This document shows, piece after piece, positions 48,888-61,370 of a stretch of 64,000 bases of DNA. The translations under genes and the position numbers were made by a program. Within the stretch, counting starts at the first letter, position 1. Every line of letters starts with the position of its first letter. The stretch covers positions 83,531-147,530 of the IMG/VR virus record IMGVR_UViG_3300049489_000321, one strand, 5' to 3'. Below the pieces are notes generated by a model. It was not told the origin of the DNA, searched no databases, and worked only from the letters and a program-made list of their open reading frames with translations. The DNA comes from a virus.

Positions 48888-48959
48888 GGGCTGTTAGCTC
48901 AGGGGTTAGAGCACGCGGCTTATAACCGCGCGACGGGTGTTCGACTCACCCACGGCCCA
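48888..48959 (+). tRNA. tRNA-Ile (anticodon UAU)
   Basis: GGGCTGT/ACGGCCC acceptor, GCTC/GAGC D-stem, CGCGG-CTTATAA-CCGCG, GGGTG-TTCGACT-CACCC, A73; CCA not encoded. Confidence 0.9.
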
Positions 48960-48972
48960 CTAGGGAAAATAT

Positions 48973-49526
48973 ATGGCAAAGAAAGTAAATACCGCTGTTT
49001 CTGAGATTGTAAGAAAAAAGAACAAGGAAATTAAGAAGCTTAAAAGCGTTCTTAGAGAAGTTTGTACTTGGCTAGAGCAGGCTAACGACATCATCCAAGA
49101 CGGATTAGACGCCGAAGAAGGCGATGACGAAGACTGTAAAGCCTTGCTTGAATACGCTAGAAGCTACGCAAAGTAATAGTGTTTAATCCAAAACCAAGAG
49201 ACTGGATCGCTGCTGGCTATACCGAAAAACCTTGGTATGACTATCAACAGTTGCTAGCACACTTCGGAATTGAAGTGGAATACCCTCACGAAAGCTTCCA
49301 CGGACCAGCATATACAGCGGAAGAAGAACATCTAAACAAAGTAGCTTTAAACAAGTTCTACCACAATATGAACGATGAAAAAATAGCTGGACTTCGTAAG
49401 CTATTGAATGATCTAGCGTGGTGGAATAATACTAGTCTTAGTCATATTTGGGGTTATTTCGCAAAGCTAGATGACGCGACTATGTTGAAAGTTTGTTATC
49501 CTTTGTTTTTCATGCTCTGGGATTAG
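48973..49526 (+). other. Two hypothetical ORFs (48973..49176, 49179..49526)
   Basis: ORF track. Confidence 0.55.
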
Positions 49527-51979: not shown

Positions 51980-52801
51980 ATGATTTTACGATTTTGCTCG
52001 TGTGGATGTGGTAAAATACTTAAGAGATACAAAAACAAGTTTGGCAAAGATGCTGGCTACGGATCTGGAATTTACGCACCAGACTGTGATCGCAAATTCA
52101 CAGAAGAGAAGAGTAGGAATATATCGTCTGTTGATCTGTCTTGGGTTGCTGGTATTATAGAGGGTGAAGGACACATAGGTATAGCCAATCCTAAAGTGGC
52201 AGGAACAACGCGAAGGAGGTACGTGCTAGGCTTGTGTGTTGATAACACAGATTACAGAATAATAGATAAACTTCATAATTTATTCGGTGGATATGTTGGC
52301 GTAAATAATAGAAAAATAGTTAAAGACAAAAACGCCAAATGGCAGTTTCGATGGCAAGTTTCGTCGGTCAAGGCTGCTACCATACTGAGGATCATACAAC
52401 CTTTTGTCGTTTCAAAAATCGAAGAAGTAAACCTAGGTATTGAATTTTATTTAGCATCAAGAGAATCTTGGCAGAACGACGCGACAAAGCCAAGGCTAGA
52501 ACCCATGCGACTTAAAATGCTGGAACTCCACAAGAGGCGCCCCGAACCTACGCAGGATAGTAGTTTATATCATAAATATAAGAAAAGTTTAATGGAGGTT
52601 CAAATGGGTAATAAGAAGAAAGACGCCAAATCACAACCAGAGGAAGGGGATCCTACAGAAGCCTACGTTAACCAAGACGGCTCTGCCGATACTCCTGACA
52701 AGTCTTTCTTAGATACTGTCAACGAGTTACCAGAACTACCGACTTCCGTAATGGCTGTTTCCAAGCCTAAGAAGTCTAGAAAAAGAATAAATAAACTATG
52801 A
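51980..52801 (+). CDS. LAGLIDADG homing endonuclease with in-frame C-terminal extension
   Basis: WVAGIIEGEG, VDNTD..II..L..LFGG, IQPFVVSK; N-terminal CSCGCG. Confidence 0.8.
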   Translation: MILRFCSCGCGKILKRYKNKFGKDAGYGSGIYAPDCDRKFTEEKSRNISSVDLSWVAGIIEGEGHIGIANPKVAGTTRRRYVLGLCVDNTDYRIIDKLHNLFGGYVGVNNRKIVKDKNAKWQFRWQVSSVKAATILRIIQPFVVSKIEEVNLGIEFYLASRESWQNDATKPRLEPMRLKMLELHKRRPEPTQDSSLYHKYKKSLMEVQMGNKKKDAKSQPEEGDPTEAYVNQDGSADTPDKSFLDTVNELPELPTSVMAVSKPKKSRKRINKL

Positions 52802-53451: not shown

Positions 53452-53730
53452 ATGTCTACCCGTGTTACCGTCGATCAGCTTATGTCCCACACCAACCTGG
53501 ACCGGCCTTCGTGCTATGGTCTTCTTCGTTTCCTTGAGCAGTCGGGGCTCGCGACTGTCGAAGCGGCGCCGCGTGACCCAAAGCAGCGCGGCAGGTCGCA
53601 GGCCCTTTACCGTATTCGTGAGGACGCTGCAATGAAGCTTCATCAGCTGCTTTCCAACTTTATGGTTGATAGCGTTGTTTCTGAGGAAGTTGTTGACGCT
53701 GATCTTGACAGCGTTGCTGCTGTTGGGTAG
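53452..53730 (+). CDS. Winged-helix DNA-binding protein (putative)
   Basis: TVDQL...LDRPSCYGLLRFLEQSGLA...RGRSQALY pattern, acidic tail. Confidence 0.6.
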   Translation: MSTRVTVDQLMSHTNLDRPSCYGLLRFLEQSGLATVEAAPRDPKQRGRSQALYRIREDAAMKLHQLLSNFMVDSVVSEEVVDADLDSVAAVG

Positions 53731-54040
53731 TATATAGGGTGTAAAGCCCTGTTGCGTTCGTTTCCCCCTCTTGAGGCCGGTTCCTCTACCAACTCTTGAG
53801 GCAATAACAGAGGGTCGCTAATAATTGATACGCTTATTAGGACTAAACTTAATACTAGTATCCGGTCATACTCTCGCGGCCACACAATTACGTAGCCAAT
53901 CGTAACTCTGTAATGAGCCAGGATCGTTATAGCGCAACTTGGGAAGTTGCGTAAGAGAGTCCTTTTCTGGTAGACTGTGTTGCCCTCGGAAGTTGTACAG
54001 TATACCTGCGTCCTGAGTAAGACGGTAAACTGCTTATTTA
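53731..54040 (+). ncRNA. Putative structured non-coding RNA
   Basis: Non-coding gap in a gene-dense region with several stems (CTAATAA/TTATTAG, GCGCAACTT/AAGTTGCGT, ACTCTC/GAGAGT) and a 3' pseudoknot. Confidence 0.5.
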
Positions 54041-54041
54041 T

Positions 54042-54099
54042 ACCGTCTGAGAACCTTAGAGTTCGGCTAGCTCTGGTGAGAATCCAGCAGACGGTTCCA
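54042..54099 (+). ncRNA. tRNA-like mini-element without anticodon arm, CCA-ended
   Basis: ACCGTCTG/CAGACGGT 8-bp acceptor, GAAC/GTTC hairpin, CTGG-TGAGAAT-CCAG T-arm, then T-CCA. Confidence 0.6.
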
Positions 54100-54112
54100 T
54101 TTTAAATAAATT

Positions 54113-55055
54113 ATGAAATATTATATTAGACACGGTTATTACGGATGTGAAACCGGTTGTTGTGGTACTACTTTTGAATCCGAAGACGGTAAGCATGAAG
54201 GATTCACTTTTTGGCACCCGGATACCGATGATCAGACTTTAGAAGCTGCTAAGAAGCACTTTAAAGACAGAATTCCGTTAGATGCTGAGCTTGTTTGGGA
54301 ATACGACGGTTGTTAGGGAACAAGAATACTATGAAGTCTAAGAACATTGATCTTGAGGTTAATACTACCGTTAATTTTGCTGCTGTTTACGAAGAGATGC
54401 TACATCAGTTTGATTACGACGATTGGTTCAAGCTTATCGTAGACATCGAGGATACGGTCTGCGACCTAGATTTTACCAAGAAGCTCCGAGATCATCTTAA
54501 CGAAGTTATTAATGAAGCCAATGAGTAAAGACCTAGAAACGAAGCTGCGAGCGCTGGTCGAGAACGCGATGCGCGACTACAGCACGCCACTACTCGACAC
54601 CCTACGCCAAGCCGCCGCCCTCGGTGCAGCGCAAGCGTATGAGGACTGTGACCAAATCGTCCGCCTTGAGCCTATCGAGGTCGGCGTGTTCACGACCGCC
54701 GATGTTCGGTATGCGCTGTCGCGACTCATCCGCGCCCGCGCCGCATCGACGGGGAAGCCGTGAGGAACTTGCTTTGGTTTACGCTGATGGTCGTGTCTCG
54801 GTCCGTTGTCGAGTTCATTGACTATGCCCGCGCTTCGACGGGGAGCAAGCCGTGAGCAAGCCCAGGACCGAGTGGCGAATCGAGCAGTTCATCGGCTTCG
54901 GCACATGGGAGGACATCGGGATTCGCTTTGGATCGCAGCGGTATGCAAAGGCGCGGGCAAAGCGATTCACGCTGCTGGATGAGGGCGAGAACAAATATCG
55001 CGTGATCCGCATCACGCGCTGGCCTCCGCATAAGTATTTAATATGTGGCAAATGA
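54113..55055 (+). other. Small ORFs 54113..54316, ~54331..54528, 54512..54763, 54760..54855, 54852..55055 (last three in a GC-rich island)
   Basis: Tiled ORFs with GTGA overlaps. Confidence 0.55.
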
Positions 55056-55871: not shown

Positions 55872-56780
55872 ATGAAGACTAAGTACACTTCTAAGGCGTT
55901 TTTCGAGGTCGATAACACTGAGTATGTCTTTGTCGGTCGTGGCTGGTCTACGGCTGCCTCGTATTGGGATCCGTCTGATCAAGAGATGACCATTGACGGT
56001 TGCGAGCGGTACATCTACGCAGAGTACGAGGGTAAGGTAGTGCAAGAAAGCGCTAATAAGCACTTTGATATCGATGAGGCTATTAAGCACATTGCCACTA
56101 GTCAAGGTACGTCTGATGACGACGCAGCAGATACGATTATCCAACAGCTTTGGGACAATGCTGAAGCAGACGATTTTGACGACGAAGGGTTTGCTTGGGA
56201 TGAGTAATAACGACGACGATCAGGACACCAATAACAGTCTAAATCTAATTAAGAATGAGGTAAATAGTGTTCTTGGATATGCTCTAAAGGATTTGGAAAG
56301 TCTTGTAGATCATGCTGTAAAAGTTGGCTATTCTATGGCCATTGAACAGAGCGCCGCCGCAGAGCGTACTGCAATTGTAGCCTTTATTCGTAGGCACTTT
56401 GCTAGTACCCTTTGGCACGTAGATACCAGGGCTGGTGAGAAACAGTCACTCGCTGAAGCTATTGAGGACGGAATTCATCACAAGGATATCCCATGAATAA
56501 ACTTAGAACCTACGAATTTATCCAGAAGGCAGGCAATGGTGGGTTTCCTGTTCCAAACGAAGGTCCGTTTACGCACGGTGAATCTGTGTTAGTAGTTAGT
56601 ACGCGCGAGCTGGTTGCTTTGTTTAAGATGATGACGCTTAAACTAGAAGCTGGTATGCGTCATAAAATGAGTCCTCAACGTCGTGATAGGTATGCGCGTG
56701 CTGTTGTTGCTATGAAAGAAATTACTGACGAGCACAATATGTGGGTAGTTCCGCCTGATTGGGATGAGGATTACCCATGA
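55872..56780 (+). other. Hypothetical ORFs 55872..56207, 56200..56496, 56493..56780
   Basis: Tiled ORFs with overlaps. Confidence 0.55.
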
Positions 56781-57259
56781 GTCGAGACCCACTGCTTTTA
56801 GCCAAGATGTTCGCTACTATGAAGCACGCCGATCAGAAGTACGGCGTGTTACCCTACACTCACCATTTACAGGACGTAGAGCGTGTTCTGGTTGAATTCG
56901 GCTATACCGATCTTACCCTCCGCACAGCGGCTTGGCTGCATGACGTAGTAGAGGATACTCCAACAAAGTTGAAGGAGATTTATGAAGCCTTTGGAGATGA
57001 GGTTGCCGAGCTTGTAAACGCTGTTACAAATGAGCCTGGACCTAGCCGTAAGGTACGCGCTGCGCTCACCTACCCAAAGATTAGAGCTAGTGATAACGCT
57101 ACCAGGCTAAAACTGGCTGATCGCATTGCAAACGTCCGCTCTGGTGGTAGATTAGTGGAGATGTACCGTAAAGAGCACGATGATTTCCACCGGATGATTT
57201 ATCGTCCTGACGTTGCAGACAACATGTGGGCAGAATTGAATAATCTTCTACGTACTTAA
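56777..57259 (+). CDS. HD-domain (p)ppGpp hydrolase (small alarmone hydrolase, Mesh1-like)
   Basis: H.DQKYG..PYTHH...AAWLHDVVEDT...FG.EVA.LV..VT...KLADRIAN. Confidence 0.85.
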   Translation: MSRDPLLLAKMFATMKHADQKYGVLPYTHHLQDVERVLVEFGYTDLTLRTAAWLHDVVEDTPTKLKEIYEAFGDEVAELVNAVTNEPGPSRKVRAALTYPKIRASDNATRLKLADRIANVRSGGRLVEMYRKEHDDFHRMIYRPDVADNMWAELNNLLRT

Positions 57260-60070: not shown

Positions 60071-60141
60071 TCAGGGATCGTCTAATGGCAGGACCGGAGC
60101 CTTTGAAGCTTCTTATCTAGGTTCAAATCCTAGTCCCTGAA
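60071..60141 (+). tRNA. tRNA-Gln (anticodon UUG)
   Basis: TCAGGGA/TCCCTGA (U1-A72), GGAGC-CTTTGAA-GCTTC, CTAGG-TTCAAAT-CCTAG. Confidence 0.9.
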
Positions 60142-60163
60142 CTAACGTATAAAGGAATAAAAC

Positions 60164-61370
60164 ATGAGAAATATCTTAAACAAAGAAGCTGAGATTGGTT
60201 ATGACTACAGAGAAAGACGCTTCATCTTTGGAGCGGGTATGACAACATTCGTGTTTATGGTTCTTTTGTTTTATTGTCATGCTTGGAACAGCGGTCTTGA
60301 TAAAGGCTGGTCGTCAGGCTATCAAAGAGGCTACGACGACGCTGAAGAGAACCTCAAGTTGATTTACGACACGCAACTTCTTTTCATGCAAGAAGGAGAT
60401 GAAAATGAGTGACGATGAAGACTACGATCGTACCAAGGAGCTTGGTGTTATTGAAAATGTTTTTGTCGGTAAGGAAGACCACGGTATTCCTACCGTGAGT
60501 ATTATGATTACGTTTAATGACGGATTCACCAGCCAAGGATTCGGCAACCTCTGTCTTACCAAAGAGACTCAACCTGTCTACTTAGATAAGGTTTGTAGCC
60601 TTTTTGGAGTAGATCACTATAAGGAGCTAAAGGGTAAGAAATGTTATGCCCTTCGCTCATTTGACTGCTGGAATGAGTATATCGAAGGTATTGAGACTCT
60701 AGACGGTAAGCGGTTCACGCACACAGACTTTCGCTACGATGTACACGGTAGGAAAGACACCGTTCTAGAGCAACGTAAGAAAGACATGGAAGAACGTATT
60801 GCTCGTCACCATGAGGATATCAAGCGTCTAAAAGAAGAGATGAAGCACCTTGACGACGATTACGTACCATGGTCTTATATGGAGCAGCGTAAGCGCAAGC
60901 CACAAGCACGAAAGAAGCGTAAGAAGTGAAAGTAAATGGCAAGCGTGTTACTGATCGCAATCGTGTTCTATACAAATGCCAAGCACTTAGCGATTCTGGT
61001 AGGCGATGTAATAGGCAGTCTACTAGGAGCCCCAACGAGTACCTTGGTGACCCTACTGTAGTGTCTTGGACGGATCACAGAGTAGTTGAACAGCACGGCG
61101 GTGTTTGGGCAGTTAAAGTGTATCTGTGCCAAAAGCACGAAGATATGCTTAATCACGTAGAAGATTATGACTAACGAGCAGCTTCAGTGGTTAACAGAGT
61201 TTTTGCTCGCTAATAACCTAACTATAGATAACTTACCAATGTTATCACAGCTAGTGCTATATTCATACAACCAAGGTTGGAATTCTGCTATAAAAGAAGC
61301 GTCAAACGAATTAGCTAATATCGGCTGTGACTATGGTTGTAGGTTTGTTGTAGACCACCTAGTCAAGTAA
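60164..61370 (+). other. Hypothetical ORFs 60164..60412 (TM), 60399..60929, 60926..61174, 61167..61370
   Basis: Tiled overlapping ORFs. Confidence 0.55.

Follow-up and report, generated by a model that had tools for sequence, protein, structure and literature searches.

In plant mitochondria, transcripts contain non-canonical tRNA-like structures, known as t-elements, at the borders of mRNAs; the termini of these structures match those of the mRNAs, and t-elements are considered to guide cleavage by RNase P and RNase Z (Forner et al., 2007, PMC1920247). In the non-coding RNAs MALAT1 and NEAT1, a small tRNA-like module (mascRNA and menRNA, respectively; Rfam RF01684) lies at the 3′ end of the longer RNA, and RNase P cleavage makes the 3′ end of the upstream RNA and frees a small CCA-ended RNA (PMC11693755). 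YrlA-type Y RNAs of bacteria and phages have no decoding arm but imitate the acceptor stem, the D arm and the T arm of a tRNA; the M. smegmatis form, with an acceptor-like stem of 7 bp, is a substrate of RNase P and acquires CCA (Chen et al., 2014, PMC4201824). The 8/4 tRNAs of bacteria and phages have a 12-bp acceptor branch split into 8 and 4 bp; these and other irregular tRNAs occur in polycistrons of irregular tRNAs, and for some of them a non-translating, regulatory role has been suggested (Mukai et al., 2017, PMC5389517).

The element described here, 58 nt in length, occupies positions 54042-54099 (plus strand) of the window, that is, of the whole stretch of DNA analysed, which is the final 64 kb of an IMG/VR virus contig of 147,530 bases from an uncultured phage (completeness 86%). 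It lies at the 3′ end of the region's largest non-coding gap (53731-54112, 382 nt), and its surroundings are an accessory region of orphan genes in which tRNA genes are scattered. The DNA polymerase of this phage has 49% identity to that of one IMG/VR viral contig and at most 31% to those of cultured phages; judged by this comparison, a close relative of the whole contig was found neither in IMG/VR nor among cultured phages. The features of the locus are as follows, in window positions.

48888-48973: genuine tRNA-Ile, ending 12 nt ahead of an ORF start codon.
53452-53730, plus strand: upstream ORF of 92 aa with a weak winged-helix (TrmB) match.
53705-53733, plus strand: candidate sigma-70-type promoter, TTGACA-17-TAGTAT, with 10/12 matches (consensus match only).
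53731-54041, plus strand: non-coding stretch upstream of the element, potentially a 5′ leader or a separate RNA freed by a cut at 54041/54042.
54020-54027, plus strand: competing strand AGACGGTA, a direct repeat of 54089-95 (repeat search).
54042-54049, plus strand: acceptor 5′ strand ACCGTCTG, positions 1-7 and G8, which pairs with C65; the U at -1 is 54041 (sequence).
54051-54064, plus strand: central hairpin GAAC-CTTAGA-GTTC at the D-arm position, 2 nt past the 7-bp acceptor (sequence).
54065-54072, plus strand: 8-nt linker GGCTAGCT at the place of the anticodon arm and variable loop (sequence).
54073-54087, plus strand: T-arm-like hairpin CTGG-TGAGAAT-CCAG, with T54, R57, A58 and the closing pair G53:C61 (sequence).
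54088-54095, plus strand: C65 and the acceptor 3′ strand (66-72), CAGACGGT (sequence).
54096-54099, plus strand: discriminator U73 (T 54096) and encoded CCA (54097-99) (sequence).
54100-54112, plus strand: A/U-only trailer TTTTAAATAAATT, which is also the 13-nt leader of the next ORF (sequence).
54113-54316, plus strand: downstream Cys-rich orphan ORF of 67 aa, with no family and no homologue.
56777-57259: HD_4-domain protein gene (Pfam match to HD_4), 2.7 kb downstream of the element.
60071-60164: genuine tRNA-Gln, ending 21 nt ahead of an ORF start codon.

The neighbouring small genes are all orphans in homologue searches; a search with the flanking ORFs gave a single relative (51%), on an ENA contig, for the ORF at 53452-53730. 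A 273-aa ORF at 51980-52801 with a weak LAGLIDADG match (E 0.006, under the Pfam cut-off) is apparently free-standing among small orphan genes, and relatives of the SLT gene of the phage were not found. The HD_4 protein, which from its family we take to be a candidate phage alarmone hydrolase, has more than 300 relatives in viral contigs with identity up to 64%; the loci around these HD-domain homologues have neither synteny nor similar DNA in common with the phage. The candidate promoter overlaps the stop codon of the ORF at 53452-53730 and is among the three best sites in 20 kb, and as judged from this consensus match an RNA of about 360 nt could extend from it to the CCA of the element. No credible ORF and no Rfam match was found in the stretch at 53731-54041, the fold z-score of which (-1.55) is not significant, and a Shine-Dalgarno sequence is absent from the leader of ORF 54113.

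The first-pass annotation had read the element as a CCA-ended tRNA mimic with a 12-bp acceptor/T stack and without a decoding arm, and this structural description is borne out by the sequence; all of its pairings and coordinates proved to be correct on re-reading of the sequence and in a repeat search. The strands ACCGTCTG (54042-49) and CAGACGGT (54088-95) form 8 perfect pairs, and the T-arm-like hairpin, consisting of CTGG (54073-76), the loop TGAGAAT and CCAG (54084-87), abuts the acceptor 3′ strand, which gives 8+4 = 12 stacked pairs. All 16 pairs of the element are perfect Watson-Crick pairs and no decay is visible. Among the hallmarks of a tRNA, the 7-bp acceptor stem, the discriminator and the 3′ CCA position are present, as are U54, A58 and G53:C61 of the T-arm; the T-stem has 4 bp, and 49:65 is a T:C mismatch, C65 being paired with G8 instead. 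The canonical UUC at 54-56 and the D-loop G18 G19 are absent, since the T-loop is UGAGAAU and the central loop is CUUAGA. An anticodon arm with a 7-nt loop is also absent, its place being taken by just the 4-bp/6-nt hairpin and the 8-nt linker. The central hairpin (54051-64) could be a stunted anticodon-like arm instead of a D arm, and because no 7-nt anticodon loop stands on a 5-bp stem whichever arm this hairpin represents, decoding is not credible.

The search that identified t-elements relied on the canonical GGTTCRANYCC T-arm motif, and t-elements do not encode CCA (PMC1920247); in the phage element the loop is UGAGAAU, CCA is encoded, and processing is predicted. The mascRNA and menRNA modules are eukaryotic and receive CCA after cleavage, whereas the phage element encodes it, and the RF01684 model gave no match to the element in an Rfam search. 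YrlA has a Ro60-binding helix, lies beside rsr and carries the canonical T- and D-loop nucleotides (PMC4201824), whereas the loops of the phage element are non-canonical; a Ro60 (TROVE) gene was not found in the phage contig (86% complete). The 8/4 allo-tRNAs keep the anticodon arm and mostly have a long variable arm, whereas the phage element has the 8/4 arrangement without either. The tRNA-like domain of tmRNA, like the element, has an acceptor stem, a T-arm and CCA but no anticodon arm; unlike tmRNA, the element has C3:G70 rather than G3:U70, no tag reading frame and no pseudoknot body joined through the domain.

Standard tools do not recognize the element. The first-pass annotation had proposed a check by Rfam and ARAGORN, and neither calls it: 4,227 Rfam models at E up to 10 gave just two chance snoRNA matches and no RF00005 match, and ARAGORN reported no tRNA there at default and nothing credible at a lowered threshold. 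The "tRNA-Tyr" at 54007-54099 in the low-threshold output is junk with a mismatched acceptor stem. Further copies of the element were not found in the phage genome, and neither the region nor the element by itself had a homologue among 50,697 phage records in blastn searches. Exact scans of IMG/VR with a 23-mer and an 18-mer were in one case empty and in the other returned one unrelated coding match. Since no homologue was found in the phage, viral, metagenome and genome collections searched, there is no covariation.

Several known kinds of structure were considered and rejected. The ARAGORN search for tmRNA, permuted forms included, was negative even at a lowered threshold. Neither an Rfam intron match nor a further 5′ acceptor strand upstream was found that would point to a tRNA interrupted by a group I intron. 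An attP fragment of a host tRNA does not suit an element that retains its 5′ strand, and no integrase was seen in the 6 kb around the element. A tandem duplication was discarded, local alignment of the element to the upstream region being no better than that of shuffles. An intrinsic terminator, a short-looped GC-rich hairpin with a U-run adjoining it, was not found here by the terminator scan; 38 nt are enclosed, and in the tail UUCCAUUUU the U-run is broken by CCA. The 20 kb around the element hold no excess of terminator-like sites.

Kinship with tRNA was assessed by descriptors and covariance models. A strict Watson-Crick descriptor (7-8 bp acceptor, an abutting hairpin of 4-5 bp with a 7-nt loop, and NCCA; both strands) is expected to match 0.05 times per simulated 147-kb genome and was observed twice in the real one. 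The second match is a plain A/T hairpin, so real DNA yields more false matches than the simulations, and when G-U pairs are allowed the 8 matches seen against 10.4 expected are at chance level. The 15-mer of the T-arm with the same spacing to CCA (15-mer + N9 + CCA) matches 7 viral, 69 metagenome and 30 genome stretches, and of the 81 distinct flank sequences of T-arm matches, 19 contain tRNAs recognized by ARAGORN; several more are visibly tRNAs missed by this program. At least 19 distinct full-length tRNAs at other loci carry the identical 15-mer and CCA spacing, with T73 in 15 of 19. The bearers include tRNA-Cys(GCA) of Acidimicrobiaceae MAGs as well as tRNAs for Ile, Gln, Thr, Arg and Leu in large phage arrays (L085, L087, L095 with 28 tRNAs, and L129 with 25 tRNAs and tmRNA), and the loop TGAGAAT (UGAGAAU) belongs to a set of only 42 T-loop variants in the 257 full-length CCA-encoding tRNAs of the fetched loci. 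As this 15-mer recurs in real tRNAs, the hairpin of the element is a genuine, minority T-arm.

A geometry descriptor (7-bp acceptor, T-stem, T54, A58 and NCCA) applied to about 1.5 Mb of fetched loci gave 384 matches, all of 68-103 nt save the element at 58 nt, which is 16-21 nt under the 74-79 nt usual for CCA-encoding tRNAs, or short by approximately one anticodon arm. When a covariance model built from 40 CCA-encoding tRNAs of other loci (R1) was run over the whole window, it ranked the three true tRNAs first and the element fourth, at 18.5 bits (E about 0.017), the next match scoring 9.4 bits; there is partial circularity in this result, since the T-arm of the element itself served to fetch the loci from which R1 was built. 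In the R1 alignment, 16 nt take the place of the 34 model positions that make up the D and anticodon arms, and the central hairpin is unaligned. A second model (R2), built solely from canonical TTC-loop tRNAs, scores the element at 8.9 bits (E about 3), which is noise. On this evidence, the element is very probably derived from a tRNA or mimics one rather than being a product of chance, and its most likely ancestor would be one of the minority of CCA-encoding tRNAs that combine a UGAGAAU T-loop with U73.

The tRNAs of the phage itself are of another kind. It had been claimed that the true tRNAs lack an encoded CCA, which holds for all six tRNAs that ARAGORN finds in the phage, and canonical TTCRA T-loops are present in all six as well. 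Since the T-loop and CCA of the element are unlike those of any of the six, the element is not a broken paralogue. In position they are alike: the element ends 13 nt ahead of ORF 54113, compared with 12 nt for tRNA-Ile and 21 nt for tRNA-Gln. As these two tRNAs end 12 and 21 nt before ORF starts, tRNA processing must cut their operon transcripts just ahead of genes, and for this reason the best reading of the element is a t-element-like processing mark. By position and predicted structure, its acceptor/T stack lies at a gene boundary within a putative longer transcript, and the processing tag proposed by the first-pass annotation is consistent with this context, in which the element ends 13 nt ahead of an ORF without a Shine-Dalgarno sequence. 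A second short shell with the same T-arm, on L120, likewise precedes a small ORF, at a distance of 32 nt, and speaks for this reading. By analogy with t-elements and the mascRNA module, we put the probability that the element is a cis-acting processing signal at roughly 40%.

From the observed sequence, geometry and operon position, we infer both transcription and every enzymatic step of the following scheme. The element itself is a tRNA shell, composed of the acceptor stem, T-arm, discriminator and encoded CCA in the 8/4 arrangement, with one short central hairpin at the place of the D and anticodon arms. Host RNase P would cut between U54041 and A54042, and an endonuclease would cut in the A/U-only trailer, after which trimming would halt at the CCA. 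Three products would result: an upstream RNA of about 300 nt with a defined 3′ end, ORF 54113 with a short leader and without a Shine-Dalgarno sequence, and a released 58-nt CCA-ended RNA. RNase P recognizes U at -1, the 12-bp stack, the T-loop and the 3′ CCA, all of which the element has, and its A1:U72 and U73 are suboptimal for the bacterial enzyme. If this scheme is true, "tRNA punctuation", known from mitochondria, would also be a means by which phages split operon transcripts into units with set ends, and it would account for genes without a ribosome-binding site and without a promoter of their own. Phage annotation would overlook such elements, which neither tRNA finders nor Rfam detect.

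The upstream sequence adds a second possible fold. A competing pairing had been claimed there, and indeed AGACGGTA (54020-27) is perfectly complementary to TACCGTCT (54041-48). The chance of an upstream 8-mer complement is estimated at about 0.001 (60 positions x 4^-8), which makes a chance origin of the competing pairing unlikely. In the ensemble of 382 nt, the competing hairpin has a probability of 0.66 against 0.33 for the acceptor stem (about 2:1), whereas in a 96-nt context the tRNA-like fold is preferred (-25.7 vs -21.5 kcal/mol); the predicted stability of both folds is similar. For the element, the cloverleaf-like fold has -17.1 kcal/mol against -17.8 kcal/mol for the minimum free energy fold, and the fold z-score is -1.76. 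Nearest-neighbour pair probabilities in the isolated 58-mer are about 1.0 for the acceptor stem, 0.07 for the T hairpin and 0.14 for the central hairpin. Folding likewise fails to give a cloverleaf for the genuine tRNA-Gln, so misprediction of the interior is weak evidence, and thermodynamic modelling neither supports nor refutes the interior of the element. The segment TTATTTA (54034-40), which belongs to the loop of the competing hairpin, could pair with TAAATAA (54103-09) in the leader of ORF 54113, a weak match of A/T only that may be due to chance.

The main rival of the processing mark is a decaying tRNA gene, in which the phage would have taken up a tRNA that encodes CCA and deletion of the anticodon arm would have left a functionless remnant, any processing being a leftover. 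The shortfall of 16-21 nt against a tRNA of 74-79 nt is close to the 17 nt or so of an anticodon arm, and a location in an accessory region, with orphan genes and scattered tRNA genes around it, within the largest non-coding gap of the region, would suit such a relic, as would a single copy without detectable relatives. Against it speak 16 of 16 perfect Watson-Crick pairs and no visible decay, a T-loop and CCA unlike those of all six phage tRNAs, and the upstream competing 8-mer, which is unlikely by chance and is unexplained by duplication, given an alignment no better than shuffles. A relic is the less likely reading, though one to be taken seriously. A nested hairpin arising by chance, or an unusual terminator, that ends in TCCA by accident is improbable. 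The noise-level score of the canonical-tRNA model R2, the chance-level result of the G-U-tolerant descriptor, the plain hairpin that is the other strict match in the genome and a fold z-score of just -1.76 speak for such an accident, but many real tRNAs carry exactly this T-arm with an identical distance to CCA, the terminator scan is empty here with no enrichment of terminator-like sites in 20 kb, and the U-run is broken by CCA.

The remaining rivals assign a function other than marking a cleavage site; the first-pass annotation had suggested a possible RNA switch and a possible decoy for tRNA-targeting defences or uncharged-tRNA sensors. An RNA switch, in which 54041-48 would pair with either 54020-27 or 54088-95 and thereby gate processing or the translation of ORF 54113, would draw on the three-segment layout with perfect 8-mers, on two folds lying within about 4 kcal/mol of each other with a context-dependent ranking, and on the ability of 54034-40 to pair with the ORF leader at 54103-09; we consider it doubtful, since no ligand or partner is evident, no Rfam riboswitch matches, and the A/T 7-mer pairing is weak and plausible by chance. 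A trans-acting mimic, by which the released CCA-ended minihelix would titrate an enzyme that reads the acceptor end, such as an immune toxin modifying the CCA end, is about equally improbable. An acceptor/T minihelix suffices as a substrate of the toxSAS FaRel2, a modification that is reversed by a phage alarmone hydrolase (PMC11559606), and this sufficiency, the HD_4-domain protein gene 2.7 kb downstream, and C2:G71 and G4:C69, which the element shares with the FaRel2 determinants (PMC11559606), speak for such a role. Nevertheless, positions 1:72 and 5:68 differ from these determinants, a decoy would compete with abundant cellular tRNA, no partner protein gene is adjacent, the link to the HD_4 gene is by proximity only, and Ro60, a CCA-adding enzyme and RtcB were not found in the contig (86% complete). 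The more specific version, in which an abundant 58-nt minihelix acts alongside the HD alarmone-hydrolase-like gene as bait for tRNA 3′-end toxins (toxSAS FaRel2/CapRel and MenT-type nucleotidyltransferases) and its release is set by the competing pairing, is slightly less probable still. As a CCA-ended minihelix is the minimal substrate of several immune toxins that target tRNA ends, a counter-defence role is testable.

Irregular tRNAs and short tRNA-like units also occur at the fetched loci. In Acidimicrobiaceae MAGs (L091, L159 and L164-L167), chromosomal tRNA-Cys(GCA) genes have CTGG-TGAGAAT-CCAG, U73 and an encoded CCA, and several of their near-identical copies are missed by ARAGORN. The arrays of L087 (110-6256), L095 and L129 lie on large phage contigs (160-290 kb), and that of L129 is accompanied by tmRNA. 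L087 and L100 contain many tRNAs with non-canonical T-loops (UGAGAAU, UGCGAAU and UGAGAUU), D-loops without GG and an encoded CCA. L100 (1-1183), a metagenome contig of 1.18 kb, is a dense array of at least 7 irregular tRNA-like units, each CCA-ended, mostly with a short T-run (TTT or TTTTA) behind the CCA; a TTT(T)A stretch stands behind the CCA of the element as well. One unit of this array (443-505) is a D-armless RNA of 63 nt with the T-arm of the element and a hairpin loop, CTCAGA, that R1 aligns to the anticodon arm, and another of about 160 nt (513-673) has a GGGG start, a wobble of the G3:U70 type and a CCACCA end. A second short tRNA shell, of 60 nt and with the same T-arm, is encoded on the minus strand of L120 (720-779), with one mismatch and one G-U pair in the acceptor; it lies in a non-coding gap of an A/T-rich contig, 32 nt ahead of a 69-aa zinc-ribbon-like ORF.
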